Below are positions 18,022 through 35,358 of a stretch of 64,000 bases of DNA, piece after piece. Under the pieces are notes generated by a model. That model was not told the DNA's origin. It made no database searches and saw nothing but the letters and a program-made list of their open reading frames with translations. The translations under genes and the position numbers were made by a program. Position 1 is the stretch's first letter, and every line of letters begins with the position of its first letter. The DNA is from an uncultured virus (IMG/VR IMGVR_UViG_3300025530_000290). Taxonomy: Duplodnaviria; Heunggongvirae; Uroviricota; Caudoviricetes. The stretch is taken from the IMG/VR virus record IMGVR_UViG_3300025530_000290. One strand, given 5' to 3'.

Positions 18022-18102
18022 CGTCCCAGCTCCTTTCGATGGGTGAGGTGCTGGATGTCGTGGCCCCCGTCTACGGGCGGGGGCCTATGCACGTCGCGGG
18101 TT

Positions 18103-19959: not shown

Positions 19960-19998
19960 CGCGCCCCCGCAAAAGGGCATTCAGAAGGGGAGGGCTGA

Positions 19999-21351
19999 AT
20001 GGCGTACGCGGAGAGGCGCGGTAAAACCTGGCGCGCACGCTACAAGGAACCAGACGGAACCTGGGGGTCCGAGTCCGGTTTCCCCACCAAAACCGCTGCT
20101 CTCGCCTACGGCCGCGAACAGGAATCCCGCATCCGCCGCGGCGACTGGACAGACCCCAAAGCCGGGCAGATCACGCTCGCCGACTTCATAGAGCAGAAGT
20201 ACCTGCAGGCGCTCGACGGCGCCCCCAACACGGTCGCCAGGCACGAAAGCCACATCGGCCGCCACATCCTGCCGAAGTGGGGGCGCTGGCAGCTCGGCGA
20301 GCTGGTGATGGCGCACGTGGAAATCAAGGCGTGGCTCAAGGATCTCCGCCAGGAGTACAAGGCGACGACGGTTGCCAGCATCTTCCAGGTGCTCACCGCG
20401 ATCATGGACACGGCTGTGGAGGCGCGGCTCATCCCCGCCTCGCCGTGCCGGAGCATCAAGCTCAAACTCGACGGCTACGAGACCTCGCGCGGGCTGGTCG
20501 CCACGCCCGTGCAGGTGCTACGCGCCGCGATGCGGCTCCACCGGATACGCCACCGAATCCGCCGGCAGGGCGGCCTCACCGAGCTCGTCCTGTGCCTGAT
20601 GGCCTTCTACACCGGCGCACGCTGGGGAGAACTGGTCGGCCAGACCCGGAACGAGTACGACCAGGTCAACAAGGCCATCTGGGTCGTGGAGCCGCTGAAG
20701 GAGGTGTCCGGCCGCCTGTCCAAGGGCGGCCGCCCGCTCGACGCGCCCCCCAGCACGCCGAGAAAACGGCCGGCCCGCGACGGCGGCACCAAAACCCCGG
20801 CGGGCACCCGCTGGATCCACCTGCCGGACTGGCTGGCGGCACTGTATGAGGAGCTGCTGGCCTCACACCAGCATCGGTTCGTGTTCGTGGGGCCGCTGGG
20901 CGGGATGATGTACCGCACCAGCTATCGAGCGGTGTGGCGGCGCGTGTGGGACGGCGACCCCGGCAACCAGGACCCGGCGTTCCACGCGCCGATCCTGCCC
21001 GGCCTGACGTTCCACGAGTCCCGGCACACGCTGCGCACGTGGCTGGCGGAGGACGGCATCCCCGAGGTGGCCCGCGCGGCCCGGCTCGGCCACAAGCTGC
21101 CGGGCGTGGCCGACGTGTATGAGCACGTCACGCCGGCCATGATCGGCCGGACGCTGCGGTGCCTGACCCGGCGCTGGCACCAGTCCATCCGGGATCTGCG
21201 CCCCGACGAGCGGGAGCTGCTGGTGACGCTGGTGCCGTCCCTGGCGGGTGAGGTGGAGCGGGCGATGTCCGCCCGCCGCAGGCGCGGCGGGGAAACGATC
21301 TCCCAGATCTCTCCCATGCAGGTGGGAAGGCGCCCGGTTGTGTCGGCCTGA
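19999..21351 (+). CDS. int: Tyrosine integrase
   Basis: N-terminal arm-binding domain; catalytic TGARWGEL, TKT, HESRHT, RLGH, VYEHV. Confidence 0.93.
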   Translation: MAYAERRGKTWRARYKEPDGTWGSESGFPTKTAALAYGREQESRIRRGDWTDPKAGQITLADFIEQKYLQALDGAPNTVARHESHIGRHILPKWGRWQLGELVMAHVEIKAWLKDLRQEYKATTVASIFQVLTAIMDTAVEARLIPASPCRSIKLKLDGYETSRGLVATPVQVLRAAMRLHRIRHRIRRQGGLTELVLCLMAFYTGARWGELVGQTRNEYDQVNKAIWVVEPLKEVSGRLSKGGRPLDAPPSTPRKRPARDGGTKTPAGTRWIHLPDWLAALYEELLASHQHRFVFVGPLGGMMYRTSYRAVWRRVWDGDPGNQDPAFHAPILPGLTFHESRHTLRTWLAEDGIPEVARAARLGHKLPGVADVYEHVTPAMIGRTLRCLTRRWHQSIRDLRPDERELLVTLVPSLAGEVERAMSARRRRGGETISQISPMQVGRRPVVSA

Positions 21352-21543
21352 CCTGCGGTTTCGCCGCCGCCGGGTGCGGGTGATCACTTCTTCCACAAGA
21401 TGTGGCCGTGCCCTTGGTGAGCTGGGCGGGTTCGCAAAACCGCTGCTCACGTGCGGTTGTGGACCGCCGCTGGCCGCCGTAGACCGCCGCTGACCGCACA
21501 GGTGATCTCCCATTCGTCTCCCATCCGTCTCCCACATGGGAGA
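21299..21543. other. attP-like site with integrase arm-type repeats
   Basis: TCTCCCA at 21299 and 21310, then 21506, 21517, 21528 (11-bp period) and inverted copy 21537-21543, flanking a ~190 bp core region. Confidence 0.7.
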
Positions 21544-21841
21544 CGCCCCGCACCCACGCCGCCACGGCGATCCGCGGCACGCGGGTGCGGGGCGCCTGCA
21601 CGGCCAACGGGCTGGGCTCCGCGCACGGCCATGCGCTCCCTGGAGCCCGCCACCGGCCTGAAACCGGAACCCCTCAACCAGGTAACGAGGTGCGCTACGC
21701 CTGCACGCTCTCGTCTGCGCCGCGACGATACCCGCAGGCAGCACACCAGAGCGCTCGATTCACACCCTTTGACGCGCTTTTACAGGCTTTGACCCGAAAG
21801 GTCGTCGGTTACGATCGAAGATGCTTCTGATCCACGCGAAG

Positions 21842-21870
21842 GGGCCCCAGCCCGCTCCGGCTGGGGCCCC
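21842..21870. terminator. Hairpin between convergent int/attP and DUF397 genes
   Basis: GGGCCCCAGCC-loop-GGCTGGGGCCC. Confidence 0.65.
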
Positions 21871-21899
21871 AACGCTCTACCGCGTCTGCCTCGAGTCCG

Positions 21900-22100
21900 T
21901 CAGGCCGCCGGCCAGTTTCTCACCTGGTCGAGGAACTCCCGCCACTCCCCCGGCGTGACCGTCAGGTACGGCGCGCTCGGGTTCTTCGAGTCCCGGATGG
22001 CCACCCCGCCGCCGGGCAGGGCCGCCGCTTCCACGCAGTTCTCCTTGGTTCCGCTGTAGCTGCTCTTACGCCAGTTGAGCCTGTTGTGCTTCTGATCCAT
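21900..22100 (-). CDS. DUF397 protein
   Basis: WRKSSYSG...NCVE...VAIRDSKNP...WREFL. Confidence 0.92.
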   Translation of the reverse strand: MDQKHNRLNWRKSSYSGTKENCVEAAALPGGGVAIRDSKNPSAPYLTVTPGEWREFLDQVRNWPAA

Positions 22101-22103
22101 TGC

Positions 22104-22952
22104 TCATGCTTCCATCTGCTGATACTTGCCTTGCAGCTCCGCCAGATAACCCACCGTCTCCTCAGGGGCCAGCGCCGACTTCACTGCCTGCTCGAAGAGC
22201 AAGTTATAGCTTTGAACATCATCCGGGTCTTCCACAAAAAGCGACTTTGTTCCTCCTTCGAGATAGACCATCGGAGCGTCCCCCTCGCCGGGGAAGTCGA
22301 GGATGACGAACGGCCCGTTGATAGCGGCATGCGCGCCGGCGCTGAACGGGATCACCTGGATCGTGACGTTCGGCCAAGCCGCGGCGTCGATCAGATGCTC
22401 GATCTGGGCACGCATCACCTTGGGCCCGCCGACCTGCCGGTGCAGCGCCGCCTCGTCGATGATGGCCCACAGCGTGGGCGACTGCTCACGTGTCAGGATC
22501 TTCTGGCGGGTCATCCGGGCCTCCACCCTTCGGGCAACCACCTGCGGTGTCAACCCCTGCTCTGCGCGGATTACCGCGGTGGCGTACTCCCTGGTCTGGA
22601 GCAAGCCGGGCACCAGCAGCCCTTCGAATGTCCGGATGGTTGAAGCGCCTTCCTCGTATCCGGGCAGTGCCGTGGGGAAGACGTCGCGGTAGGACGTCCA
22701 CCACGCCTTTTCGTGGGTCTGGCGGACAAGTTCGAGGATGGCCTCCCGGTCCTTGCCAGTCACGCCGTACAGGTCCAAGAGCGCTACGACGTTGGCCTCT
22801 TTGGCCTTCTTCCATCTGTTGAGCTCAATGTAGGACAAGCTGCCTTTGGACCAGCCCAGGCGTTCGGTGACCTGCTCGACGGTGAGGCCAGCTTCCTTGC
22901 GTCGTTTGACCAGCTCCTGGGCGAGATAGCGGAGCCGGATCGTGGAGGTCAT
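22104..22952 (-). CDS. XRE HTH + DUF5753 regulator (WhiJ/Scr1-like)
   Basis: HTH N-terminus; VPGLLQTREYA, WAIIDEAAL, PNVTIQVIPF, ALAPEET. Confidence 0.9.
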   Translation of the reverse strand: MTSTIRLRYLAQELVKRRKEAGLTVEQVTERLGWSKGSLSYIELNRWKKAKEANVVALLDLYGVTGKDREAILELVRQTHEKAWWTSYRDVFPTALPGYEEGASTIRTFEGLLVPGLLQTREYATAVIRAEQGLTPQVVARRVEARMTRQKILTREQSPTLWAIIDEAALHRQVGGPKVMRAQIEHLIDAAAWPNVTIQVIPFSAGAHAAINGPFVILDFPGEGDAPMVYLEGGTKSLFVEDPDDVQSYNLLFEQAVKSALAPEETVGYLAELQGKYQQMEA

Positions 22953-22982
22953 CGGTGTGCGGCCTTCCTTGCTGCGGGGGTG

Positions 22983-23028
22983 GTAGGCGGTCGTGTAGGC
23001 GGTCGCAGACAAATTGACTTTCAATTTG
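22983..23028. promoter_or_regulatory. Operator-like direct and inverted repeats upstream of XRE-DUF5753
   Basis: GTAGGCGGTCG x2 (22983, 22995); CAAATTGA-CTT-TCAATTTG (23010-23028). Confidence 0.5.
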
Positions 23029-23114
23029 GTCTTGAAATGATTGTGCCTCACCGACACGATGGGAGGGAACCCATCACGTCCAGCGAGGCAACGATGACGC
23101 TCCCCAACCGCAGC

Positions 23115-23381
23115 CTACCCATCCGCCCCACCCGGAGGGCGCTCTTCGGGACGACGCACGAACGTCCCAAGCCCAGGCACCTTCTTCACCAGCCCCTCGT
23201 CCTCCAGGTGACCCAGCACCTTCCGCGCCGTGTTCAGCCCGATGCCGAACTCCTGCATCAGCTGCTGGAGGGACGGCACCGGGAAACCCGGCTTGTAGTC
23301 CCCGGCGGCAATCCGCTCCTTGATGATCTCGGCCACCTGTACCCAGAGTGGCCGGTCCAGGTCCGGCGTCCATTCGCGCAT
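23115..23381 (-). CDS. GntR-family wHTH regulator (KorA/TraR-like)
   Basis: PLWVQVAEIIKERIAAGDYKPGFPVPS...EFGIGLNTARK...GLGTFV; divergent from transfer genes. Confidence 0.85.
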   Translation of the reverse strand: MREWTPDLDRPLWVQVAEIIKERIAAGDYKPGFPVPSLQQLMQEFGIGLNTARKVLGHLEDEGLVKKVPGLGTFVRRPEERPPGGADG

Positions 23382-23518
23382 GCGGAGGAACCTAACCAGC
23401 CCTACCAGGGCTTATTCAGCCTGGACCAGTCAGGCCCAGGCGCACCCAGGCAGGGCAGGGTGGGGCATGCCCAGACAGAGTCGCAACTCTGTGTAACCGT
23501 CGTGGGGGGTGGAGAGCG

Positions 23519-23905
23519 GTGATCGAGCTCACCTGGGAGATCCCCCGCCAGTGGGAGGCCGTCGGCATCGTCCGGCGGGACGTCTGCAAGCTCCTCGCCG
23601 ACTGGGGCATGGAGAGCGACGCGCCAAGCGTCGCGGTGATCATCTCCGAGCTGCTCACCAACGCGCTCCGGCACGGGGCGGGGACCGTCACCCTCTGCCT
23701 GGCCCGGCACGGTGAGGGCATCCGGGGGGCTGTCTCCGACCACGGGGCAGGGACGCCCCGCAAGATCGAGGCCGCGGGCGACGCCGAGCACGGCCGCGGC
23801 CTCGCGATCGTCGACGCCTACACCACCGCCTGGGGCGTCCACCCGCTCGCCTGCGGCGGCAAGCAGGTGTGGTTCGACTACAAACCAGCAGGGAGCCCGG
23901 CATGA
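23519..23905 (+). CDS. HATPase_c / RsbW-like ATP-binding protein
   Basis: SELLTNALRHG, VSDHG, EHGRGLAIV, GKQVWF. Confidence 0.88.
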   Translation: MIELTWEIPRQWEAVGIVRRDVCKLLADWGMESDAPSVAVIISELLTNALRHGAGTVTLCLARHGEGIRGAVSDHGAGTPRKIEAAGDAEHGRGLAIVDAYTTAWGVHPLACGGKQVWFDYKPAGSPA

Positions 23906-24117
23906 ACGAGGAGAGGCTCCTGCAGATCATCCAGGTTGATCACCCGGGCTGGAGCATCAGCCGCAGCAGCTCCGGCTGGGTGGCCACCCGCCTCACCCCG
24001 GCATCGCCCAGGGCCCGCGCACACGGCGCGGTCGACACCGTGAGCTCTGCCACCCTCGCCGGCCTTGCTGGCCTGCTGAGCCAGCAGCTGGCGATCGACC
24101 AGCGGCACCGTACCTGA
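23902..24117 (+). CDS. Small hypothetical protein
   Basis: ATGA-coupled; HPGWSISRSSSGWVATR. Confidence 0.6.
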   Translation: MNEERLLQIIQVDHPGWSISRSSSGWVATRLTPASPRARAHGAVDTVSSATLAGLAGLLSQQLAIDQRHRT

Positions 24118-24414
24118 GACTCCCGGCGGCAGCCACTGCCACCGGGCGCGGGGCGCGGCGGCGCAGACACCAGCCCACGTGGGGAGGGCCAGGGCGGCGC
24201 CGCCGCAGCCCCGTCCAACCAGACCGCCCGGCCGGGCCCCACACCCGACCCCAGCCCGGCCGGGCTCAACCACGAAAGGGGAGAGGGGAGAAACGATGGT
24301 CCACCGCAAACCCGGCCCAAGCCCCGGGCCCCGCCTGCTCGCGGCGATCGTGATCTGCGCCCTGGCGATCGCCGCCACCGCCGCCATCCTGACCAAGATC
24401 ACCTAGGGAGAGTT

Positions 24415-24693
24415 TTGTCCACCCTCCGCACCCCGAGCACCTGCCGCATCTGCGGCACGGACTACCACCAGCACCCAGACACCCCCCGCATCCCGCACCA
24501 GCGCGGGCAGGCATGCGCGGCCTGCGTCCCAGTGGAGGACGCGCTCGCCCACGTCGCCGTGGAACTGCGCCGCCTGGAGCGCGTGCTGGACGTGGTGGTG
24601 GAGCGCGTCATCCGCACCGCCACCGCACCGGCGGTCGTCCTCGCGCGGGCGCTGATCCGCACGGCCCGCGCCGAACTCGCCCCACCCCAATAA
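24415..24693 (+). CDS. Hypothetical Zn-binding protein
   Basis: CRIC...CAAC; TTG start after GGGAG. Confidence 0.45.
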   Translation: MSTLRTPSTCRICGTDYHQHPDTPRIPHQRGQACAACVPVEDALAHVAVELRRLERVLDVVVERVIRTATAPAVVLARALIRTARAELAPPQ

Positions 24694-24782
24694 CGCGCGC
24701 GGCCCCCGAGCGGCGATCACAGCGCCACACGGGGGCCGGGCCCACCACGGGCCGCCACCCCTGACCTGACCAGGAGTGACCA

Positions 24783-26225
24783 GTGACACACAATAACTAC
24801 CCCATCACTCCGCCGCTAGCCCCGGCGGAGACCAGCACCCTCCCCGACTGGGTCACCAACCCCCCGATCCTCCTCATCATCGCCACCGCCACGGTGGCCC
24901 TCGCCGTCCTCATCACCGCCGCCGCGCTCACCGCACGGCTCGTGCGGCGCATCCGCCGGCCCGCCGAGGACATGCTCACCCTCGGCGTCGCCGCCCTCGC
25001 CACCGGCGTGTCCGCCCAGGGCATGTGGCGGTTCTTCGAGGACAAACTGGGCATAGACGGGCCGCTGCGGATCATGCTGTTCGCCTTCATCGAGCTGGCC
25101 GTCGCCGCATCCGCCATCCGGGCCCGCCGGAACATGCGGGACACCGGCTCCGCCGGCATCGACGGCATCGCCGTCTGGGCGCTCGCCTCCCTCACCGCGA
25201 CGCTGTCCGCCATGGACGCGCGCAGCACCGCCGAGGCGCTGTTCCGGCTCGCCGCCCCGCTGGTTGCCGCCTGGCTGTGGGAGCGCGGCATGGCCGTCGA
25301 GCGGCGCCGCATCACCGGCCGCCGCCGCATCAACTGGCGGATCACCCCCGAGCGCATCCTCGTCCGCCTCGGCCTCGCCGAGGCCACCGAGCGCACCGTG
25401 GGCGAGGTCGACACCCAGCGCCGGATCACCCTGGTGGCGCTGGCCGCCGAGCGGCTGCGCTACCTGCGCACCATCCAGGCCGCCCACTGGCGGATCCGCC
25501 TGGCCACCTGGCGGCTGCGCCGCCGCTACACCGCCGCGGCGCTCAACACCGGCATCGCCGGCAACACCGAGCTGCAGGCCGCGCTCCGCCGCGAGGTGGC
25601 GGGTCTGCTCGCGGTCGACCAGCTGGCGGACATCCAGCCGCTGGCCGCATGGTCGCAGGCCGACCAGCCGCGGCCGGTCGACGACCACTCCGCGACCGCG
25701 ACCGCCGAGGACGTGGACGCGTCCACCGGCCGCGACCGCGGCCAGGACGCGACCGCGACCGACCAGCTGCTCGTCAGCTACACCTCCGGCCGCCGCGGCC
25801 GCACCGTACGGTGGGCGGACGCCGAGCTCGACGAGCCGACCACCCCGACCGTCCCGGTCGCCGAGATGCCGACCGCGACCACCCCGGCCGCGACCGGCGC
25901 GCACGACCAGAGCGACCAGGACGCGGCCACGGCCGGCACCGCCACGGACGACACCGCATGGAGCGAGCTGGTCGGCCAGCTCGACTCCCACGAGCAGCGG
26001 CCGCAGTCCGACCACGAGCGCGGCATCGAGATCATCATCGACTACTACCGCGCGAACAAGACCTACCCGAGCAAGCGCCGGCTCGCCGACGAGCTCGGCC
26101 CCCAGCATGGGCTCACCTACAAGGCCACCTGGTGGCACGAGCGGCTCAGGGACGTCCGCGCGATGCGCGAGAGCGCCGGCTCTGAGCCTGCCCTCAACGG
26201 CTCGCAGCACCTGGGCCACGGGTGA
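24783..26225 (+). CDS. Multi-TM plasmid transfer/spread-type protein (DUF2637/Spd-like) with C-terminal HTH
   Basis: Several TM helices (FAFIELAVAASAIRAR, LAAPLVAAWLWE), low-complexity linker, PSKRRLADEL. Confidence 0.65.
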   Translation: MTHNNYPITPPLAPAETSTLPDWVTNPPILLIIATATVALAVLITAAALTARLVRRIRRPAEDMLTLGVAALATGVSAQGMWRFFEDKLGIDGPLRIMLFAFIELAVAASAIRARRNMRDTGSAGIDGIAVWALASLTATLSAMDARSTAEALFRLAAPLVAAWLWERGMAVERRRITGRRRINWRITPERILVRLGLAEATERTVGEVDTQRRITLVALAAERLRYLRTIQAAHWRIRLATWRLRRRYTAAALNTGIAGNTELQAALRREVAGLLAVDQLADIQPLAAWSQADQPRPVDDHSATATAEDVDASTGRDRGQDATATDQLLVSYTSGRRGRTVRWADAELDEPTTPTVPVAEMPTATTPAATGAHDQSDQDAATAGTATDDTAWSELVGQLDSHEQRPQSDHERGIEIIIDYYRANKTYPSKRRLADELGPQHGLTYKATWWHERLRDVRAMRESAGSEPALNGSQHLGHG

Positions 26226-26517
26226 CCGCCATGATCGCCGTACACGACCACGACCGCCCCGGCCGCGACCACGCGACCGGGGCAATGCCCTGCCGCGACC
26301 ACTACCGGTCGCGGCCGCACCCGACCGGCCGGACGCCGCGACCGCACCGCGACCACACCCCCGACCGGCCGGTCGCGACCCCGACCATCACGACCCCGGC
26401 CGCGGTCGCGACCGCCGACCACGACCGGGTCGCGACCGGCGACCAGCGACCGGACGCGACCAGCCGAACCAGCCGCGACCGCGACCGCCGGGGACGTGGA
26501 CGCGTCCAGCGGCCGCG
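25690..26517. repeat. 45-bp direct repeat pair and CGACC-rich tract (candidate clt)
   Basis: 25690-25734 vs 26473-26517 match at 43/45; 26225-26530 is packed with (CG)CGACC units. Confidence 0.7.
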
Positions 26518-26547
26518 GCCCACCGACCACCCCGAAAGGACCACCCA

Positions 26548-27018
26548 ATGAGCGACACCTGGCGCGGCGAGATGCTGCGCAGCCCGGAGCTGGTGGAGGC
26601 GTTCGCCGGCCAGCTCCGGCGCGTCCTCGACGACGTCGAGCGGCTCGTCGCCCACGTCCGCCGGGACGCCGAGCCGATGTGGCGGGAGAACATGCCTGCC
26701 GAGTACAGCGCGATTGAGGCCGCGCTCAAGCGCCGCAAGCTGACCAAACCGCTGCGCGAGATCCAGCGCCACTTGGACGCCGCGATTGAGCAGACGTTCG
26801 CGCTGGACGCGCGCTACCGGCGCATCATGCACGAGATCCCGCAGGAGCGGCGCACCGGCCGTATGGAGCTCGAACGCGGCACTCAGCGCCGCCCCATCAC
26901 GCCGGGCCGTCCCCGGCCCGTACAGCGCGCCTCAGACACGCCTGAGCACCAGCAGCCGGAGGCCACCGAGGTGTCATTCCTCGACCTCGTACGGCAGCAG
27001 AAGCGGGGGTCGGCATGA
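26548..27018 (+). CDS. Plasmid transfer accessory protein (TraA-like)
   Basis: RBS GAAAGGA; helical 156 aa protein in the tra operon. Confidence 0.55.
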   Translation: MSDTWRGEMLRSPELVEAFAGQLRRVLDDVERLVAHVRRDAEPMWRENMPAEYSAIEAALKRRKLTKPLREIQRHLDAAIEQTFALDARYRRIMHEIPQERRTGRMELERGTQRRPITPGRPRPVQRASDTPEHQQPEATEVSFLDLVRQQKRGSA

Positions 27019-27287
27019 GCACCCGCGTGACCGTCACCTCGCCGTCACGCCGCCTGGAGAACAAGCGGCGCATGTGGACCGAGCGCGTGGAAGCCGCCCG
27101 AAACCAGGTCGAGGTGGCGCGGATCTGCTTCGAGCGTGCCCGCGCCGCGGCCCGCGCCGCCGAACGCGCCGGGCGGCCGGACGCCTGGGACGAGCTCGCC
27201 AAAACCCTCGCCGAGTGGTCCGCCACCTGGGAGAAGTGGGAGGCCGAGACGCTGCAGGAGCAGGAGGCCGCCAGTGACGCACGGTGA
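27015..27287 (+). CDS. Small helical protein in tra operon
   Basis: ATGA coupling. Confidence 0.5.
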   Translation: MSTRVTVTSPSRRLENKRRMWTERVEAARNQVEVARICFERARAAARAAERAGRPDAWDELAKTLAEWSATWEKWEAETLQEQEAASDAR

Positions 27288-27431
27288 CAGCCGGAAGTTC
27301 ATCTGGGCCTTCATGTTCATGTTCATCCGGGCGTGCGCGCGCGCCTTCCGGGCCCCCTACGCGCGTACGCGCGTACGCGCGAGGCTCGAGGTGGCCGCGC
27401 CGGTCACTCTCTGTGGCCGTGGGGGTGGGCG

Positions 27432-28922
27432 GTGAGCGGCGACGAGAACGTCGTGTCGATCACGCCGACGATCCCCAAGCCGCCGCCGATGGCGCCGCCG
27501 CCGCACCTGCTCCTGCCCGGCCCCGGCGAACCCGGCAAGGACGACAAGAACAGCAAGGACAGCGGGGAGCTGCCGTGGGGCGACGAGCAGCAGCCCGGCG
27601 AGGACGAGCTCACCCCGCCCCCAGTGGACAACCCGGACAACCCCACCCCCAGCGAGGTGCTCGCCACCCTGCTGGCCGTGCTCACCGCCATGGGCGTGGC
27701 CGGGGCCCGGCGCCTGTGGCTGCAGATGGGCGGCAAGGACACCGCAGGCCGCGACCGGCAGAACAAGACCGACCCGCGGACGCCATCGTCCCCGACCGGC
27801 CGGGACAGGTCGCGGTCGCCGCTCGGCGCGACCGGTCGCGACCGCTCCAGCCGCGACCGGACACGACCAGACCGGCGCGACCACGACCGGCCGCCATCCC
27901 GGCCGCGGTCACGCGACCACGACCGCGACCGCCGCAGACGCCGCGACCGGTCAGAGGATCCGGTCGCGACCGCCATCCGCAAGGCGGTCGCCGCCGCCCG
28001 CCGGCGAGCCGCCAAGAAGCGCGCCGAGGAGAAGGACGGCCCCTCCGGCCAGCCGCGACCGGACGACCAGCCGCGACCGGCACGGCGACCACCGCGGCGC
28101 CGCCCCGCCGGCGCGCTCCCCTCGACCCGCCGCCCCGCACTCGACCGCGGCCAGCCCACCCGCAAAACCCGCCGCGAACGAGCCTGGCGGCGCTGGCGGG
28201 CCCGACACCCCTGGTGGAAAGCCGCGACCAGGGCGGCCCGGGCACGCTCCAGCAGAACGACCGGCGCGACCGGCGCGGACGGGGGCACACGCGCCACCAC
28301 ACCACCGCCCCCACCGCCGCCGGGTGGCATGCGGCCACCACCCGGCGCCACCCGTATCTGGGCGGACGCCGAGGTCGTCGGCAAACACCCACACCGACCG
28401 CCGCAGCCGCCCCCGCCCGCGGCCGCCTACCGGCACAAACCCCCGCTACCACCCGGACCAGACGACCACACCGGGCACCCGCCGGCCACACGAGGAGCCC
28501 TCATGACAACCACCGCGCTCGCGCACACCGGTGCGCCGCCACGACACGACGACCCCGAGATCACCGTCCACGACGTAATCGAGGCAGGCCGCGACGCCGC
28601 GCAGGAAATCCAAGACGGCGCGGCGCTCGCAAACCGCCTCGTCGACATGGCCATCGGGCTCGGCGCGCAGTTCGACACGCTCCGCGCCGACGCCGCCGAG
28701 CTCAGCGTGCCCGGCACGCTCGTAGCCGATCTCACCGCGCTTTCCGAGCGTGCCGGCGTCATGCAGGGCATCGCCGCCGAACTCGCCGCTGCACTCATCC
28801 GCGCCGCCGACGCGGTACGCGCCGCGGCCGACACCGCAGAGCAGCACCATCGGCCGCTCGCCGACACCACCGCCGACCACGGACACGACCGCCCCGCCGA
28901 CGCCGACTACCACAAGGACTAG
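27432..28922 (+). CDS. Transfer-region protein: TM helix, Arg/Asp-rich repeat linker, helical C-terminal domain (possible internal start at 28503)
   Basis: GTG start; RDR repeats encoded by CGCGACC tracts; GAGGAG then ATG at 28503. Confidence 0.55.
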   Translation: MSGDENVVSITPTIPKPPPMAPPPHLLLPGPGEPGKDDKNSKDSGELPWGDEQQPGEDELTPPPVDNPDNPTPSEVLATLLAVLTAMGVAGARRLWLQMGGKDTAGRDRQNKTDPRTPSSPTGRDRSRSPLGATGRDRSSRDRTRPDRRDHDRPPSRPRSRDHDRDRRRRRDRSEDPVATAIRKAVAAARRRAAKKRAEEKDGPSGQPRPDDQPRPARRPPRRRPAGALPSTRRPALDRGQPTRKTRRERAWRRWRARHPWWKAATRAARARSSRTTGATGADGGTRATTPPPPPPPGGMRPPPGATRIWADAEVVGKHPHRPPQPPPPAAAYRHKPPLPPGPDDHTGHPPATRGALMTTTALAHTGAPPRHDDPEITVHDVIEAGRDAAQEIQDGAALANRLVDMAIGLGAQFDTLRADAAELSVPGTLVADLTALSERAGVMQGIAAELAAALIRAADAVRAAADTAEQHHRPLADTTADHGHDRPADADYHKD

Positions 28923-28925
28923 CCC

Positions 28926-29351
28926 ATGGCCGACGCCATCGCCACCACCAGCAGCAGAAGGAACGCGGTCTCCGCCGAGCTTGAGCGTGCCCGCTACCAG
29001 CGCATAGTCCAGCGGCTACCCCGCCTCGCCGAGGAGCTGAGCACGCTCGCCGAGCAGATCCGCCAGGGCGCCGCGTTCGTGGCCGGGTGCGCGGAGGCAA
29101 CCCGGCACCGCGCCGAGCAGATGGCCGCCCTGCGCGTTGACACCGACACCGTAGGCCGCCACTACGAGGCCGCCACCGCCATGGAACAGGCGCGTAGCCT
29201 CGTCGACCGGCTGGCCGCGACGATCGCCGAGATAGCCACCGCGGCCAACCACACCGCCGCCGCTCACCGTGGCCAGTACGGGGGCGTCGCCGAGGCCGCC
29301 CGCTCTATGGCGGTGGAGCAGGCCGACCCGAGGTTCTACGCCAACCGGTGA
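28926..29351 (+). CDS. Helical transfer-region protein
   Basis: Ala-rich helical ORF, GTGA-coupled to traB. Confidence 0.6.
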   Translation: MADAIATTSSRRNAVSAELERARYQRIVQRLPRLAEELSTLAEQIRQGAAFVAGCAEATRHRAEQMAALRVDTDTVGRHYEAATAMEQARSLVDRLAATIAEIATAANHTAAAHRGQYGGVAEAARSMAVEQADPRFYANR

Positions 29352-31648
29352 TCGCTGTGACGCTGGCTCACCACCGCACCCGGGACGTCCGCACCTGGCC
29401 CGCCTACACCCGCACCCGCCGCCGGATCGCCCGCCTGCAGGACGTCACCGGCCGTGCCGCCACACTCGCCGGGCTCGCCCTCGGCGGCACCGGCATGCTC
29501 CTGCCCGACGTCGCCCTGCCGGGTCTCGCGGCCGCCGCGCTCACCACCGGGGCCGGGCTGGCCACCTTGCGGGCGTGGCGACCGGCCGGCGTCACCAAAG
29601 CCACCGCGACCGCCATGTACGCGCTGCCGGGCGCGGGACTGTGCGCGCTCCTCGGCTGGGAAGCCCTCGTCGGCGGACCGCACTGGGGCATGGCGCTCGG
29701 CCTGCTCACCTGGGTCACCGGAACCTGGGCGATCCGCCCCGCATGGGCCGCCCGCCGCATGCTCGTCGGCCCACCCCCGCAGCCCGAGCTCGTGCCGCCC
29801 GAACCCGCCGCCGAACTCGAACCACCCGCCACACATAGCGCGGCGCGTTGGTGGGCCGAGCACGCCGCCACCGAGGACGGGCCCGCCCCCGGCACCATGC
29901 TCCGCGAAGTAGAGCCATACGGATCAGGGGTGCGCGCGATCATCACCTCAGCGCACCCCGGCCGCCCCGTACCCGACATCAACATCCCCGCCCTGTCCGC
30001 CCTCCTGGACGTGCCAGAGGACCACATCCACCTCGGCCCCGTCCCCGGCCGCGGCGCCGGAGTCCGCCAGCTCACCATCGGCGCACCACGCCAGAACCAG
30101 CCGGCCACCACAGCCGAGGCGTGGCGCGCCCAAATCGCCCCCGCCGCCATGCGCGACTCCGAGCTCGTCGAGGTGCGGTACGGCACCGGCACCCGCGAGG
30201 GAGTGGTCGAGTTCCACGCCGAAGTCCCCCGCGGAAAAACGATCACCTACGACTTCGGCGCGCTCGTCTCCGCCCTCGACGCCGAGGACGACCCATCACG
30301 AGTCGTCGTGGAGGCCAGCTACCGCAAGGCGATCGTCACCCTCTACCCCCGCAACCCGCTCCTGGACATCCAGCCCGTCACCCTCAACGAGCTGCTGATG
30401 GACGAGCGCGGCTACATCACCGTCGGCCTCTACCACAACGGCCGCCCCGCCCAACTGCGCCTCTACGACCCCGAAACCGGATCGGCCCAGCGTTTCCTGC
30501 TGTTCGGCACCACCGGCGCCGGCAAGAGCCGCACACTCCAACTCCACCTCGCGGCGGAGAAACGCAACGGGATCTGCTCGCTCGTGGCCGACCTCAAGGG
30601 CGGCCAGTCCGTGCCCGAGGCGCTGCAGAACGTGTGCTGGCCCGTCACCAGGCAAGAGGCGGCGATCATGATGCTGCGGTCCGCGGCCGCTGTCGCCGAG
30701 GACCGCATGCGCCGCTACGCCGCCCAAGGCCGCAACGCATTCGAACTCGGCGTCGATCCCCTCATCCACGTCACGATCGACGAGGCCAACCGGCTGCTCG
30801 AGACCGGCGCGCCCTACCGGGACGAGGCCGTCCGCCTCATCAAAGAGATCGCGCGCACCGGCCGCTCGGTTGGTGTCGGCATCCGCCTCGCGGCCCAGGC
30901 ATCCCACCTCGACGAGCTGGGCGGCAGCGACACCATGCGCGGCCTGCTCAAAGAGGGCGAGGTCACGCTGCTGCGCTGGTCGTCCTCGATGATGCGGCAG
31001 CTCGTCGCCGACGGCCTCCTGCCGCCCGGCGTGCAGCTCACCCCGATCCCCAAACGGATCGGCACCACCCCCCTGGTCAGCCAGTTCGACGAGGCCGGCG
31101 CCGAGGACGCCGGCGAGGGCACCCAGGGCATGGCCTATCTGCTGTCGGGCGCTCACCCGACGAGCCTGATGCGCCATTTCAGAGTCGGCGCCGTCGAACC
31201 AACACGCGGGCTCGACCCCGAGATCCTCGCCCTCTACGGGCCCGAGCCGCCGGTCGAGCTCGGCCCGGAGGACGCCGCCGCGGCTGGTGAGGCGTACGCG
31301 CTCCGCCACGACGAGGACGCCGTCGTGCGTCTCTTCTTGGGCCAGACCAGCCAGCCATCTGGCGCTGCGCGGCCTGCCGCGGCGCCGCAGACCACCCCGC
31401 CCGCCCAAACCAGTCAGGCACCCGCTGTGGCGCCGCGGCACCTCAACGACCGCATCCTCGACGCCCTCCGCGCCGCCGGCCGATCCCTCACCGCCGCCGA
31501 GGTGCTCGAGATCGTCAACGCCGACGGCGGCCGCACGGTCGCGCTCGGGTCGATCCGCAACGCGCTCTCCCAGCTCGCAAACCAGGGCCAGGCCGTGCGC
31601 ACCGAGCACGGCCACTACACCATCCCGCAGGAAGGAGACAACAAGTGA
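29348..31648 (+). CDS. FtsK/SpoIIIE-family conjugative DNA translocase (TraB-like)
   Basis: N-terminal TMs; Walker A GTTGAGKS; DLKGG; Walker B VTIDEA; GRSVGV..RLAAQ; C-terminal wHTH. Confidence 0.85.
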   Translation: MIAVTLAHHRTRDVRTWPAYTRTRRRIARLQDVTGRAATLAGLALGGTGMLLPDVALPGLAAAALTTGAGLATLRAWRPAGVTKATATAMYALPGAGLCALLGWEALVGGPHWGMALGLLTWVTGTWAIRPAWAARRMLVGPPPQPELVPPEPAAELEPPATHSAARWWAEHAATEDGPAPGTMLREVEPYGSGVRAIITSAHPGRPVPDINIPALSALLDVPEDHIHLGPVPGRGAGVRQLTIGAPRQNQPATTAEAWRAQIAPAAMRDSELVEVRYGTGTREGVVEFHAEVPRGKTITYDFGALVSALDAEDDPSRVVVEASYRKAIVTLYPRNPLLDIQPVTLNELLMDERGYITVGLYHNGRPAQLRLYDPETGSAQRFLLFGTTGAGKSRTLQLHLAAEKRNGICSLVADLKGGQSVPEALQNVCWPVTRQEAAIMMLRSAAAVAEDRMRRYAAQGRNAFELGVDPLIHVTIDEANRLLETGAPYRDEAVRLIKEIARTGRSVGVGIRLAAQASHLDELGGSDTMRGLLKEGEVTLLRWSSSMMRQLVADGLLPPGVQLTPIPKRIGTTPLVSQFDEAGAEDAGEGTQGMAYLLSGAHPTSLMRHFRVGAVEPTRGLDPEILALYGPEPPVELGPEDAAAAGEAYALRHDEDAVVRLFLGQTSQPSGAARPAAAPQTTPPAQTSQAPAVAPRHLNDRILDALRAAGRSLTAAEVLEIVNADGGRTVALGSIRNALSQLANQGQAVRTEHGHYTIPQEGDNK

Positions 31649-32508
31649 CCAGCAACCCGACGTTCGAACAGGTCGCCCGGCACCTCTTCCAAGACACCCT
31701 GCCCCGCCGCTACACCACCCTCTACCTACTCCCCGCCCTCATGACCGCGGCAGGCGCCGCACTCGGCCTGCTGCTCGGCTGGCTGCCGCACAGCACGATC
31801 ATCGGCACCGCCACCCTCGTCGCCGCCTACACCGCCGCCACCAGACGGGATCAGCGTCCTGCTTTCGCCCCCGCCAGCGCGGCCGCATACCTCCAGCGGC
31901 TCCGAACCGAACTCCCCGGCGACGCCATGGACGCCATCGCGGACGCGGTCGCCGAGTGCAAGACCCGCGGGATCGAGGCCGACGTGTACCGGATCACCTG
32001 TGCCTGCGGCCAGATCATCTGCACGTGTGAGAACCGGGTCCGCGCCGCCGTCGCCCCCTTCGGCCCGCGGTACGCGATCATCGCCGTCGGCGACCGCCTC
32101 GCCGACACCACCGGCCAGCTGCGGTTCGTGCTCGCCCACGAGCTCGGCCACCTCGCCGGCTTACACCGCGTCTCCCAGAACGCGTGGCATGCCGCCAACA
32201 CGCTCGGCTTCGCGATCATCGGCCTCCACGCCACCGGCTGGACGCTAGTCACCGCGTTCATCACGTGGAGGCTCGTCTGCAGTCTCTGGTACGCGGTCAA
32301 CGAGGCGGCGTGCGACATCCGCGCCGCACGGCGCTACGGCTATGAGGCCGCCGCCTACTGGAAGCGCCGCGTCGAAGCCGCGCGGCTGGCGCGCTCGGCC
32401 CGGCCGGTGTGGCATCGGCTGGTGGCGTTGCCGGTGCAGGTGCTGCCGATGCATCCGCCGCTGCGGGTGCGCGCCTGGTACTGCCGGATCGTCGGCACCC
32501 GGCGCTAA
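31645..32508 (+). CDS. Membrane Zn metallopeptidase (M48/M56-like)
   Basis: FVLAHELGH, NEAACD, MHPPLRVR; TM helices. Confidence 0.8.
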   Translation: MTSNPTFEQVARHLFQDTLPRRYTTLYLLPALMTAAGAALGLLLGWLPHSTIIGTATLVAAYTAATRRDQRPAFAPASAAAYLQRLRTELPGDAMDAIADAVAECKTRGIEADVYRITCACGQIICTCENRVRAAVAPFGPRYAIIAVGDRLADTTGQLRFVLAHELGHLAGLHRVSQNAWHAANTLGFAIIGLHATGWTLVTAFITWRLVCSLWYAVNEAACDIRAARRYGYEAAAYWKRRVEAARLARSARPVWHRLVALPVQVLPMHPPLRVRAWYCRIVGTRR

Positions 32509-32665
32509 GCCGGGGACCGCACCCGCGGGCGTGGCCCTGGCACGTCACACACCGGGGCCACACACCACCCACGACATATAGCCGATTCGGCGAACTCCAA
32601 GCCGTCATCTTGTGCATCGTGGACAATAAGAGCGTTCCCCTTTCTCCCCTTCAGGAGATCACTCC

Positions 32666-33271
32666 ATGCCACAGCAGCCCGTGCTGTCGATTCTCCGGAT
32701 GCCACCCGGAGACCCGCTCACCGAACGCACCTGGCACGACACCCACCTCGCCCACGCCAAAGTGCTGGAATGGGCCGCAGACAGCCAACGCGTCCTGTGG
32801 GCCCGCCCCGCCAAGCAAATCCTGCTGATCCAATCCACCCGCCACGTCACCCCCAGCAACCTCCCCGCCGGCCACCACGTCACCTGGCGGCAGGTACGCA
32901 CCGACTGGGAACCCGGCACCCAAATCCGCTGGTCCCTCATCGCCAACCCCGCCAAAGCCCAACCCCGGCGCGACGGACCCGACGGGCGCTGCACCAGGCC
33001 GAGCCCCCGCGTGCCACTCCCGCCCGCCCAGCGCGACCAGTGGCTTCACCGCAAACTCGGCGCCGCCCTCACCATCACCCACATGACCGGGCAGCCACTC
33101 GGCCGCCGCACCGGCAACCGGGCCGGGCACCACATCGTCCACGAACTGCACTGCTGGGCAGGCCACGCCGTCGTCGCCGACAGCCACGCCCTCGCCGCCC
33201 TGATCACCCTCGGCGTCGGCCCCGGCAAGGCCTACGGCGCCGGGCTCCTCATCGTCCAGGAGGCCGCATGA
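32666..33271 (+). CDS. cas6e: Cas6e/Cse3-like crRNA processing endoribonuclease
   Basis: HLAH N-terminal His, RVLW...LLIQS, LIANPAK, QWLHRK, Gly-loop GVGPGKAYGAGLL; RBS AGGAG. Confidence 0.88.
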   Translation: MPQQPVLSILRMPPGDPLTERTWHDTHLAHAKVLEWAADSQRVLWARPAKQILLIQSTRHVTPSNLPAGHHVTWRQVRTDWEPGTQIRWSLIANPAKAQPRRDGPDGRCTRPSPRVPLPPAQRDQWLHRKLGAALTITHMTGQPLGRRTGNRAGHHIVHELHCWAGHAVVADSHALAALITLGVGPGKAYGAGLLIVQEAA

Positions 33272-34164
33272 CCTACCCATCCGGACCGGTGATGGTGTGG
33301 GAACTCGCCGGGCGCCCCAGCCGCGCCTCCATCCGCGTCGAACCCATCCCCGCCCCGTGCGCCATGTGCGGCCAGCACGCCGCCGAAACCGCCGCCACCA
33401 AAACCGCCATCGGCGGCAACTTCACCGACCAGTACCTGCTCGCCCGCCCCGACTCCCCGCGGATCTGCTACGCCTGCACCTGGGTGTGCTCCGGCAAACC
33501 ACCCGACACCATCCGCATGTGGACCGTCGCCGCTGCCCCCGGCCGCGGCTTCGGCCCCTCCCACCCCAAATCCCCCGGCTGGGGCAACAGCGACCTGCTG
33601 CTGACCGCCCGCAACGACATGCGGGAGGTGGTCGCCCTGCTCGCCGACCCACCCGACGGGCCATGGCTGGTGTCCATCGCCGAGACCGGGCAGAAACACC
33701 ACCTGCCGTACGCGCGGATCAACCACGGGCAGGCCCGGTGGACGGTGCGGATGGACGCCGTCGACATCACCGCGACCCCCGCCCAGTTCCGGCACGTGTT
33801 CGGCCACACCGTGGCCCTCCGCACCGCGGGGTTCACCGCCGCCGAGATCGAGCAGCTGGCCCCGCCGGTCCACAAACTCACCGCCGGCAACCTGCCCATC
33901 TGGCGGCACCACGCCCAGCAGCTGGCCCCCTACAAGGGCAGCGCGCTCCTCCACCTGACCAACTTCGTGATCAACAAGGAGCACCTCAATGAATACGCCA
34001 CCGCCTACGGCGCCCCCGGACCTCGACACGATGATCAGCTGGGGCAGCCAGCTCATCAACGCCCTGCTGGACACCCCCGGCGTGGCCCAGACCCTCGGCC
34101 GGGACCTGTGGACACGGGCCCGCACCGCGCTGGAGACGGGCTGCTCGACGGCGTCCTTTTCTGA
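33268..34164 (+). CDS. csf1: Type IV large subunit Csf1 (Cas8-like)
   Basis: CAMC...NFTD...CYAC zinc finger, GQKHHLPYA; ATGA-coupled to cas6. Confidence 0.8.
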   Translation: MTYPSGPVMVWELAGRPSRASIRVEPIPAPCAMCGQHAAETAATKTAIGGNFTDQYLLARPDSPRICYACTWVCSGKPPDTIRMWTVAAAPGRGFGPSHPKSPGWGNSDLLLTARNDMREVVALLADPPDGPWLVSIAETGQKHHLPYARINHGQARWTVRMDAVDITATPAQFRHVFGHTVALRTAGFTAAEIEQLAPPVHKLTAGNLPIWRHHAQQLAPYKGSALLHLTNFVINKEHLNEYATAYGAPGPRHDDQLGQPAHQRPAGHPRRGPDPRPGPVDTGPHRAGDGLLDGVLF

Positions 34165-34408
34165 AGCCGTCTCCAAAACCGCGGCGAAACTGCAGATCGA
34201 CGGCGCCCTGCCCGCCAAGACCAGCGAGGAGATCGTACGGCTCGGCCGCCACCTCGCCGACCCGGCCGTCTTCGGGGCGTGGGCCGAGCTCATGCGACGC
34301 GACGCCGTCTACGTCATCGCCATCGCCCGCGTCGACCGCAAAACCCGCAAACCCGCCACCAGCACCGTCACCAGCGCCGACGACGACACCGAAAGGGTCC
34401 CGTTCTGA
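33989..34408 (+). CDS. cas11: Type IV-B small subunit Cas11-like
   Basis: 139 aa all-helical (FSEAVSKTAAKLQI); RBS AAGGAG; sits between csf1 and csf2. Confidence 0.72.
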   Translation: MNTPPPTAPPDLDTMISWGSQLINALLDTPGVAQTLGRDLWTRARTALETGCSTASFSEAVSKTAAKLQIDGALPAKTSEEIVRLGRHLADPAVFGAWAELMRRDAVYVIAIARVDRKTRKPATSTVTSADDDTERVPF

Positions 34409-35358
34409 TGACCAGCGACCTGCACGCCCTGCACGCCCTCCCCGACCTTCACCTGCCGCTCACCCTCACCGCCCTCGACCCCATCTCCCACGGCGCCGGC
34501 ACCAGCGGAAACACCCAGCTCCTGCGCGTCCAAGACGTGCTCCAGCCGGACGGGCGGCGCGTGTCGGTGCCCTACATCTCCGGAAACAGCCTGCGGCACA
34601 CCCTCCGTGCCGCCCTCGCCTGGCACCTGGTCCGCACCCTCGACCTGCCCGACCGGGCCCTCCCCAAGAACGTCGTCGACCTGCTGTGGTCCGGCGGCGC
34701 CTTGTCGGAGACCGGCAACCAGGTCGACCTGGAGACCGCCCGCCGTGTCTCCGCGACACTCCCGGCGCTGTCGCTGCTGGGCTACTCCGCCCGCAGCGAC
34801 ATCGTCGCCGGCACCCTGTGGGTGGACAACGTCCACCTGGTGTGCGCCGAGAACGTCTTCCGCCTCCCCGACCGCCTCACCGGCCACCCCCACGCCGACC
34901 TGCCCGCGGGGGCGATGCGCGGCGAGGCGTTCGGCACCCGCCACGACGTGCGCGGCACAGCCGTCGACCGGTACATCGCCATGCTCGCCGACCACGGCGA
35001 GACCGGCATGCTCGGCCTCAACACCGCGGCGGACGCCGAACCGGCCACCACCCAGATGATCTACGACATGCAGGTGATCAAACCCGGCGCTGTCCTGTGG
35101 ACCGGCCTGCACCTGCTCACCCCCACCCCCGGCCACATCGCCGCGCTCGCCGTCGCCATCGACGAAGCCATGCCCATCGTCGACGGCCGCCGCATCCTCG
35201 CCCTCGGCGGCAAACGCTCCACCGGGTACGGCTCCTGCGCGGCCGACGTCGACCTTGCGCCGCTCGGGGACCTGGCCGCGCTGCGCGCCGCCTACGAGGC
35301 GCACCTGCGCGAGCACCGCGACACCATCATCACCATGCTCAAGGACGTGGTGGGCTGA
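34408..35358 (+). CDS. csf2: Type IV Cas7-like backbone Csf2
   Basis: LTALDPISHG, VPYISGNSLRHTLR, LWSGGAL, QMIY, LGGKRSTGYG. Confidence 0.92.
   Translation: MTSDLHALHALPDLHLPLTLTALDPISHGAGTSGNTQLLRVQDVLQPDGRRVSVPYISGNSLRHTLRAALAWHLVRTLDLPDRALPKNVVDLLWSGGALSETGNQVDLETARRVSATLPALSLLGYSARSDIVAGTLWVDNVHLVCAENVFRLPDRLTGHPHADLPAGAMRGEAFGTRHDVRGTAVDRYIAMLADHGETGMLGLNTAADAEPATTQMIYDMQVIKPGAVLWTGLHLLTPTPGHIAALAVAIDEAMPIVDGRRILALGGKRSTGYGSCAADVDLAPLGDLAALRAAYEAHLREHRDTIITMLKDVVG

Follow-up and report, generated by a model that had tools for sequence, protein, structure and literature searches.

Does a temperate tailed phage of actinomycetes carry, as an integral part of its own genome, the kind of machinery with which Streptomyces plasmids transfer double-stranded DNA (dsDNA), and could such a phage then spread without particles? 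The question is raised by the uncultured Caudoviricetes virus of IMG/VR record IMGVR_UViG_3300025530_000290, of which we analysed a stretch of 64,000 nucleotides (64 kb; hereafter the window), and specifically by positions 23115-32508, where a short GntR gene lies divergent from a 12-gene plus-strand operon that includes the gene of a TraB-like DNA translocase. Our results indicate that this segment is very probably a dsDNA transfer and spreading module of the Streptomyces-plasmid type, as also found in the integrative and conjugative elements of actinomycetes (AICEs), and that it is integral to a temperate phage. The explanation that best accounts for the data overall, with a probability of roughly 0.6 in our estimation, is that the transfer module, as an integral part of the phage, provides it with a particle-free route.

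The putative transfer operon and its ATPase

Because the window has a G+C content of 72%, genes were called by third-position G+C (GC3), which gave 91 genes, and the encoded proteins were annotated by Pfam, NCBIfam, PADLOC and PHROGs scans. An earlier reading of the same DNA (the first-pass annotation) had placed the module at exactly these coordinates, and the GC3 gene calls and Pfam bear out the arrangement it described, that is, a GntR gene divergent from an operon of membrane proteins, helical proteins and an ATPase. The parts of the module are the following (aa, amino acids; ORF, open reading frame).

23115-23381, minus strand: GntR-family regulator, 88 aa, candidate Kor/TraR-like repressor (PF00392, E 2e-16)
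23382-23518: divergent intergenic region of 138 nt, presumed promoter/operator from its position only
23519-24693, plus strand: leader genes for an HATPase_c anti-sigma-like protein of 128 aa and for proteins of 71 aa, 36 aa (hydrophobic segment) and 92 aa (Cys-rich) (PF13581, E 6.5e-10; phrog_12354, E 3e-20)
24783-26225, plus strand: 480-aa putative membrane protein, SpdB2/DUF2637-like (hydropathy, BLASTP)
26222-27287, plus strand: 109-aa repeat-rich ORF, then 156-aa and 90-aa helical proteins (the latter two with plasmid homology)
27432-28922, plus strand: 496-aa protein with one hydrophobic segment, a Pro/Arg-rich middle and a conserved helical C-terminus (frame by GC3)
28926-29351, plus strand: 141-aa helical protein (plasmid homology)
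29348-31648, plus strand: TraB-like DNA translocase, 766 aa (homology, motifs)
31645-32508, plus strand: M48-like metallopeptidase, 287 aa, with HELGH and hydrophobic segments (PF01435, E 2.3e-6)

The 766-aa ATPase comprises an N-terminal hydrophobic part (residues ~33-124), a Walker A motif (387-394), a Walker B motif (~476-481) and a short C-terminal domain (~700-757). The Walker A (GTTGAGKS) and Walker B (IDEAN) sequences are invariant over 35 homologues, and a conserved RTGRSVGVG...AQAS motif occupies, in this family, the place of the third FtsK motif. The protein matched the NCBIfam model EccCa (E 1.5e-7) and PHROG 1358, FtsK/SpoIIIE-like (E 7.6e-7), and, among its weaker plasmid matches, genes annotated as DNA translocase FtsK (tblastn E 6e-28), others being labelled 'type IV secretory system conjugative DNA transfer family protein' or 'putative TraA'; in a protein atlas, FtsK_SpoIIIE clusters were its nearest named neighbours (0.93), which we take as a lead only. 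Its family profile aligned over 236 columns (hhalign probability 97.5%, E 7e-12) with a second TraB-like family, carried by the related proviruses described below, some members of which are FtsK-named or match PF01580 and some of which have C-terminal helix-turn-helix (HTH) Pfam matches; this second family in turn aligned with one true FtsK over 162 columns (E 1.7e-4). The hydrophobic part, a candidate membrane anchor, consists of four Ala/Gly-rich stretches within residues 33-124, which are weak (Kyte-Doolittle 1.0-1.4) and have no counterpart elsewhere in the protein. As judged from these motifs and profiles, the protein is an FtsK/HerA-type P-loop ATPase, TraB-like, with an N-terminal hydrophobic part.

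Several results pull in the other direction. PF01580 (FtsK_SpoIIIE) did not match the ATPase even at E<=1; the same model also misses pZL12.71c and the TraB-like protein of provirus G003 (both introduced below), and thus it seems to be blind to these subfamilies. The family profile aligned with one bona fide FtsK in the Walker A region only (hhalign probability 13%). Against solved structures, phmmer with the ATPase returned nothing at E<=1, and the family profile gave matches of E 0.03 or weaker only. The C-terminus had weak matches to Fur/Zur-type winged helix-turn-helix (wHTH) domains (E 0.17-0.47) and to MCM4_WHD (E 0.18), and aligned with the C-terminus of the second family at E 0.007 but with an hhalign probability of 5%. 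Accordingly, of the FtsK-family ATPase with C-terminal wHTH in the first-pass annotation, the FtsK-like character is upheld by EccCa, PHROG and motif matches, while the wHTH comes down to weak sequence hints.

The plasmid/AICE-type, TraB-style nature of the module, also claimed in that annotation, is supported by both homology to and gene order shared with Streptomyces plasmids. Among 8000 candidates scored, 279 relatives of the ATPase were found at E<=0.001, the named ones as 'transfer protein', 'major plasmid transfer protein TraA', 'DNA/RNA helicase domain-containing protein' or 'hypothetical protein', and over its C-terminal 62% the ATPase shares 53-63% identity with ~480-aa proteins of Streptosporangiales and Streptomyces. 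It matched 235 PLSDB plasmids at E<=1e-5 (218 of them from Streptomyces) and 267 at 1e-3, and none of 50,697 phage records. In the plasmids NZ_CP109021 (22.8 kb) and pFP12 (NC_023068), a GntR gene faces the operon as it does in the module, and the operon keeps the gene order of the module, with homologues of the 156-aa and 90-aa proteins, of the C-terminus of the 496-aa protein, of the 141-aa protein and of the N- and C-terminal parts of the ATPase; with the transfer proteins of small Streptomyces plasmids the ATPase shares 52-56% identity. Identity to the genes at the same place in two plasmids (L001 and L002) is 41-45% for the 156-aa protein, 42-50% for the 90-aa protein and 38-39% for the 141-aa protein, and the C-terminal ~125-140 aa of the 496-aa protein are 37-40% identical to 650-700-aa proteins of L001/L002.

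There are also differences. In NZ_CP109021 and pFP12 the ATPase is encoded by two overlapping genes (308 and 483 aa), whereas the window has one gene of 766 aa, a fused form that is common to eight other sequences of the long-form alignment (66-100% identical); the gene of the 766-aa ATPase is a fusion of two adjacent plasmid genes. The GntR of these plasmids is full-length (241 and 284 aa) as opposed to 88 aa in the module, and they have Prim-Pol and Rep-like genes and iterons but no M48 gene. Across 26 ATPase loci from species-representative genomes, the ATPase gene co-occurred with that of the 496-aa protein in 23, of the 141-aa protein in 22, of the 156-aa protein in 20, of GntR in 14 and of the 90-aa protein in nine; none of these loci had cas genes, and matches to phage genes were stray only. 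The M48 gene is absent from all 26 and, on this distribution, is best read as a lineage-specific addition. A natural variant, the relative L020, is without nearly the whole M48 gene (at its positions 5066-5128).

The operon (23519-32508) contains six 4-nt start/stop overlaps (23902/5, 26222/5, 26548/51, 27015/18, 29348/51 and 31645/8) and is, to judge from these, translationally coupled, as described for spd operons in PMC4447253 (here and below, PMC articles are cited for the parts of their text that were available). An ORF at 27284-28984, which would be coupled to the gene upstream of it, was rejected as spurious; it overlaps the gene of the 496-aa protein and is in the wrong frame by GC3. 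Four of the 13 module proteins had a meaningful Pfam match (GntR, HATPase_c, a weak AAA_22 and Peptidase_M48). The 480-aa protein had no direct Pfam match at E<=1; it shows four N-terminal hydropathy peaks (29-47, 64-82, 94-112 and 126-144), is 29% identical to a PF10935-positive, 476-aa DUF2637 protein of G003 (BLASTP E 6e-12), and is linked by the protein atlas to DUF2637 and SpdB clusters (scores 0.85-0.92). No particular gene could be assigned to the TraA-like protein of the first-pass annotation, since databases use the name TraA for homologues of the ATPase. A search of 23382-23518 for sigma-70-like sites gave none, and a promoter and terminator scan of 21.3-33 kb was uninformative, with one promoter-like site inside the DUF5753 gene and terminator counts at chance.

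The regulator fits the Kor/TraR role proposed for it in family and position and falls short of it in length. It is 33-39% identical to the N-terminal part of the L001/L002 GntR proteins and to pZL12.80, and a GntR winged helix divergent from the transfer operon occupies the same position in L001, L002 and pZL12. Being only 88 aa long, with the next gene beginning 58 nt downstream, it consists of the winged-helix DNA-binding domain alone; the absence of a C-terminal effector/oligomerisation domain (UTRA or FCD) weakens the case for a typical repressor. When the window is compared with a relative 73% identical to it in the ATPase, the ratios of nonsynonymous to synonymous substitution (dN/dS) are only moderately low, a point against the transfer reading: the ATPase gives 0.38, and the genes of the 156-aa and 141-aa proteins give 0.54 and 0.77, respectively; dS is probably underestimated at the codon bias of the window. 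The RNA libraries X15 and X16 contained 0.71 and 0.39, respectively, of the sampled words of 19.5-29.4 kb, and contigs of X15 fall on several module genes; since such libraries can also include DNA, these matches do not prove transcription.

Continuity of the module with the phage genome

The Pfam, NCBIfam, PADLOC and PHROGs matches give an overall gene map of a temperate siphovirus, laid out as follows.

0.3-18.6 kb, minus strand: early genes (replication initiator, DnaN, RuvC-like, exonuclease, Lsr2, WhiB, HNH, Gp3-like)
18.1-19.96 kb: cro/cI-like pair (Pfam/PHROGs)
19999-21351, plus strand: tyrosine integrase, 450 aa (PF00589, E 1.3e-8; phrog_1 integrase, E 8.5e-50)
21352-21899: non-coding gap of ~550 nt, candidate phage attachment site, attP (short repeats, hairpins)
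21900-23057, minus strand: pair of DUF397 (66 aa) and Sco1979-family HTH/DUF5753 (317 aa) genes (PF04149, E 2e-23; PF19054, E 4e-64; NF058600, E 1e-72)
21.9-45.5 kb: cargo region
45.5-64 kb, minus strand: lysis, tail and connector genes (Pfam, PHROGs)

The module therefore lies where the first-pass annotation had it, between the integrase/attP region and the lysis and tail genes, and no integrase or Rep of its own, as that annotation also stated, and no relaxase was found within 23115-32508 by Pfam, NCBIfam or PHROGs. The gap downstream of the integrase holds the tandem repeats GACCGCCGCT (3.6 copies, 21462-21497) and TCTCCCATCCG (2.6 copies, 21506-21534), and hairpins are visible in its sequence; repeats and hairpins directly after an integrase fit an attP, for which the gap is a candidate. 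An Rfam scan of 21.2-24.8 kb gave no tRNA or other match, so no tRNA-derived att core was found. The DUF397/DUF5753 pair also adjoins a GntR gene in provirus G003. A Gp3-like protein resembling recombination directionality factors is encoded at 14820-15983 (PF18897, E 6e-42), next to which it may be noted that the phage integrase (19999-21351) is a tyrosine recombinase; Gp3-type factors are known partners of large serine integrases.

The part of the genome beyond the window is supplied by a 31-kb IMG/VR contig (G002) that is 99.8% identical to positions 60094-43089 and adds the genes of the terminase, portal, scaffold and capsid. On the window numbering its first base falls at 74,249, a figure identical to the length of the longest contig recorded for the ATPase, and the 10 kb that it contributes outside the window contain packaging and head genes only; the host phage is a temperate siphovirus of about 74 kb. 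Reading the start of the window into the start of G002, as a test of circularity, gives an open frame, which has little meaning at 72% G+C. No partition genes were found among the 91 window proteins (Pfam, PHROGs), no close relatives turned up in IMG/VR by ATPase or integrase search, and megablast of both phage arms against the 50,697 phage records likewise gave no close relative. The bacterial host is a mycelial actinomycete, probably of the Streptosporangiales. Among the head-tail connector genes are Group-1 glycosyltransferase genes (phrog_26352; 61908-62897, 63531-63995 and, on G002, 9700-10719), whose interleaved position suggests modification of virion proteins; the 1814-aa tape-measure protein also has an NlpC/P60 domain, and its gene has an internal 138-nt tandem repeat (55874-56327, 3.3 copies, 79% matches).

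Does the module belong to this genome, or could it be a separately integrated element, or the product of a chimeric assembly, that lies outside the phage? In the window, phage genes stand on both sides of the cargo in one contig, and no att-like direct repeats were found to flank the module, which tells against the own att sites that the first-pass annotation had named as a sign of a separate element. Its other such sign, a coverage break or misassembly, is addressed by independent samples. Positions 19500-29400 were present at at least 0.88 of sampled words in 14 runs, dated 2016-2025, from bioreactor, manure and compost metagenomes and including two runs without an organism on record. When the contigs of three DNA runs from different studies were aligned to 17500-37499, the integrase-gap-DUF397 junction was bridged in each of them (X12, 17500-22028; X11, 17500-21915; X8, 19109-21659 and then 21630-23522), and contig depths were similar on the two sides, at 17.1, 12.4 and 18.1 on the integrase side and 18-27, 12-15 and 17-23 over the transfer genes, although these are per-contig means of unitig-like contigs and hence a coarse test. 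Frame-breaking indels in the transfer genes were absent among the indels listed for the three runs. Two further independent contigs reproduce 25869-33237 at 100% identity (L018) and 29621-38784 at 99.9% identity (L019). All joints in the aligned contigs were short-sided (20-35 letters at 90% likeness) and were treated as artefacts of repeats or other organisms.

There are, nonetheless, observations that speak for a separate element or chimera. The stretch at 21.6-23.5 kb (DUF397/DUF5753/GntR) has about twice the depth of its flanks in the three DNA runs, and in every run there are unitig breaks near its two ends, at about 21630-21915 (21630-21659 and 21915) and about 23522, with one contig of one run departing from the window sequence at 21582, inside the candidate attP gap; the doubled depth and the breaks at both ends mean that this stretch also exists in a second context, which seems to be either the integrated form or some other element. 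Between the module and the lysis genes, the junction (38.8-43.1 kb) has the support of a single assembly only, and G002 stops at 43089, next to a TnpB element. In provirus G003, moreover, the cargo holds a XerC-like integrase, so that the copy there could be a neighbouring element. Given the bridged junction with matching depths, the near-perfect identity of L018 and L019 through 38784 and the lack of an integrase or Rep within 23.1-32.5 kb, we consider it highly improbable that the module lies outside the phage genome.

A candidate transfer site and a possible mechanism

In the published cases of TraB-type transfer, clt sites are arrays of 7-9-bp direct repeats, partly inside genes, that are bound by the TraB/TraA winged helix (PMC3583192). 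The operon offers one candidate for such a site.

25691-28271: three CGCGACC clusters (31 copies on the plus strand, 7 on the minus strand), a candidate clt or array of TraB docking repeats

The window contains 43 plus-strand copies of CGCGACC, 31 of which fall within 25691-28271. In 500 dinucleotide-preserving shuffles of 25.6-28.3 kb, the plus-strand count averaged 3.3 and never exceeded 9, and the observed copies favour one strand (31 against 7) and are spread over the three reading frames (9, 7 and 15). In the relative L020 (ATPase 73% identical), all ten plus-strand copies are confined to 313 nt of the equivalent gene. The array is accordingly a candidate clt or transfer site by its clustering. 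Some observations call for caution, however. Over the whole window and both strands there are 60 copies against 49.9 expected, a number reached by 6 of 100 shuffles, so that the word is concentrated in that stretch and not over-abundant overall. Most copies lie in low-complexity coding sequence, many of them encoding Arg-Asp or Ala-Thr runs; in the 496-aa gene, 8 of 13 copies read Arg-Asp in frame, and in L020 all copies are in frame. The array could thus be a by-product of repetitive coding sequence. Clustered words in the compared plasmids were considered as clt sites and set aside, their spacing in multiples of three probably reflecting peptide repeats, and they lend no support.

Published work provides the remaining elements of a model. 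As far as the available parts of these sources go (PMC3583192, PMC2440964, PMC4447253), the TraB protein of pSVH1 forms a hexamer in the membrane and recognises 8-bp repeats through its winged helix, one tra gene together with clt is enough for plasmid transfer, GntR-type TraR/KorSA proteins repress the transfer system, and Spd proteins together with TraB spread the plasmid through the mycelium. By analogy, the 88-aa GntR would keep the divergent operon shut in the lysogen; after derepression, the TraB-like ATPase would assemble as a membrane ring, its C-terminal domain would dock on the CGCGACC repeats of excised or replicating phage DNA, and it would pump phage dsDNA into the neighbouring hypha, with the SpdB2-like and other operon proteins passing the DNA across septal cross-walls. 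The phage integrase would then install the DNA in the recipient, the outcome being a particle-free route beside infection. The phage may in this way spread both by virions and by hyphal conjugation. Taken by itself, the proposition that the module really moves the phage genome between or within hyphae is one to which we would give slightly less than an even chance.

A more restricted role has also to be weighed, namely that the module works inside one mycelium only, carrying phage DNA, lytic or lysogenic, across septa without any mating with other mycelia. Spd proteins and TraB do drive intramycelial plasmid spreading, and the operon is rich in Spd-like membrane and helical proteins, which fits this role. 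Against it stands the observation, in the available text of PMC4447253, that plasmids use the same TraB machinery for both steps; sequence alone cannot separate the two roles. We regard a purely intramycelial function as unlikely, and favor the wider reading, in which the module would give the phage a particle-free route beside infection.

Relation to plasmid-phages, AICEs and related proviruses

Elements that join virions to conjugation reportedly go back to pZL12/phiZL12, which Zhong et al. are said to have described in 2010 as a plasmid-phage with both particles and conjugation, and to pFP4, a Streptomyces plasmid-phage attributed to Chen et al. in 2012. As far as the accessible part of PMC4170104 goes, pZL12 and pFP4 conjugate as episomes and form infective particles, and the pZL12 tra gene is described in PMC3583192; since both elements are in print (PMC3583192, PMC4170104) and SpdB2 homologues had been noted on actinophages before (PMC4447253), the novelty that the first-pass annotation gave to a phage-conjugative hybrid was overstated. 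The pZL12 sequence (GQ919031) resembles the window in that a GntR gene, pZL12.80, faces an operon (.79c-.70c) in a tailed-phage genome, the operon encoding a membrane protein (.73c), a 766-aa protein (.72c) and an FtsK-like protein (.71c). By tblastn, matches to pZL12 are limited to five of the 91 window proteins (the RuvC-like protein, the GntR regulator and three tail proteins); no transfer protein is among them. The window phage shares with plasmid-phages the presence of a virion module and a transfer locus on one replicon, and it lacks their autonomous plasmid maintenance (ParA/ParB, RepA): pZL12 is a plasmid with ParA/ParB, whereas the window phage has an integrase and a candidate attP. 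Because pZL12 and pFP4 are published precedents, the window phage is an integrating variant of a plasmid-phage type already in print. The full-text literature searched, which leaves subscription journals mostly outside, yielded no account of a tailed phage that integrates and carries a TraB module.

Two other kinds of system invite comparison. [quoted passage not shown] In the window, the repeats lie upstream of the ATPase gene and inside other genes, not at its 3' end as in the TraB/clt systems. AICEs, in the available portion of PMC2440964, resemble the window in having an integrase followed directly by attP (a candidate in the window), a regulator of the GntR family and a transfer protein of FtsK type. 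They are, however, 9-24 kb in size, with their own Rep and no virion genes, while here phage replication, integration and regulation are found in ~74 kb. The window phage is accordingly not an AICE by definition: its module has no Rep or integrase, and its sole integrase is flanked by phage immunity and early genes on a genome with a full virion module.

Three related proviruses put the module into context. The tail proteins of G003 are 50-72% identical to those of the window, and the two are roughly collinear through the cargo region. Beyond its tail genes, G003 has homologues of the APH-like, 66-aa, 498-aa and HTH genes, followed by WhiB, a XerC-like integrase, a 724-aa TraB-like protein, DUF2637, a toxin-antitoxin pair and DUF5753/DUF397, with GntR closing the record. 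The 724-aa protein has a hydrophobic N-terminus, P-loop-like and DE-box motifs seen by eye, and homology in its ATPase core to the window family; it represents a different subfamily at the same cargo position, and is identical to a protein of a Streptosporangium genome. Its C-terminal winged helix is predicted from Pfam HTH matches on some of its homologues. Provirus G004 has a 47%-identical copy of this gene after its endolysin, at the end of the record opposite the integrase, and G005 has no TraB-like gene. Thus, a TraB-like gene of one of two subfamilies lies between the lysis genes and the att end in three of the four elements (the window and the three related records). The borders of G003 and G004 are automatic calls that may include a neighbouring element, which detracts from this comparison; the problem does not apply to the window, which has phage genes on both sides. 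G004 also encodes, beside its TraB-like gene, a complete FtsK (10075-12222) with alpha, motor (PF01580, E 4e-67) and gamma domains, as well as an SsgA-like sporulation/cell-division protein (18352-18720).

The cargo to the right of the module is of plasmid type in several respects. A type IV CRISPR-Cas set lies directly downstream of the transfer operon (32666-37547), with the following genes.

32666-33271: Cas6e-like
33289-34164: Csf1
33989-34408: type IV Cas11, in an overlapping frame
34408-35358: Csf2/Cas7 (PADLOC, E 3e-92)
35358-36095: Csf3/Cas5
36089-36880: PAPS-reductase/CysH-like gene

We take this set to have a type IV-B make-up plus a Cas6. There is no CRISPR array in the window; an independent contig likewise carries the cas set together with the ATPase gene. 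Further along are an APH-family phosphotransferase-like gene (42226-43194; PF01636, E 3e-11), with a 47%-identical copy at the same place in G003, and an IS200/IS605-type TnpB (43284-44474; NF040570, E 6e-79), with no TnpA in the window. G002 ends 195 nt past this TnpB, and it has a second element, with TnpA and TnpB, by its terminase genes (333-1922). Past 38784, contig L019 diverges from the window and carries different genes (L019 9165-10800).

This setting raises the possibility that the module itself is passive cargo, a piece captured from a plasmid or AICE that has ceased to benefit the phage, or that benefits the host through, for example, mobilisation of chromosomal DNA or exclusion of rival elements. 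A variable region with plasmid-type passengers (type IV CRISPR-Cas, the TnpB element, the APH-like kinase), a cargo that, as L019 indicates, differs between samples to the right of the module, and the truncated GntR would all agree with such an origin. Yet all 12 operon genes are intact and, by their overlaps, translationally coupled, the ATPase shows purifying selection (dN/dS 0.38), and none of the indels listed for the three populations breaks a frame. The related proviruses, further, keep a TraB-like gene of another subfamily at the same position, which fits selection for function. Passive carriage is therefore, in our view, rather improbable, and somewhat more so than the intramycelial role discussed above; we favor a transfer module that is part of the phage and offers it a particle-free route.

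In a broader and tentative view, which we hold to be possible although the odds are against it, this phage may stand for a widespread, undescribed class of integrating phages of mycelial actinomycetes that combine virions with a self-contained TraB pump reading its own repeats, so that a prophage could invade neighbouring, even phage-resistant, hyphae without lysis; the pump cassette would have been exchanged between phage and plasmid in this lineage and would travel with a type IV-B CRISPR-Cas system that may fight rival plasmids. The published cases are episomal, and an integrating form that recurs in compost, manure, bioreactors and Streptosporangium proviruses would show the combination to be common. 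The candidate docking word and the fused pump gene represent direct handles for binding and mating tests. If the pump does move the phage genome, receptors and particles would not be the only determinants of host range and spread, mating could carry lysogeny through a colony or to resistant neighbours, and the boundary between prophage and integrative conjugative element would be blurred in the bacteria that make most antibiotics.

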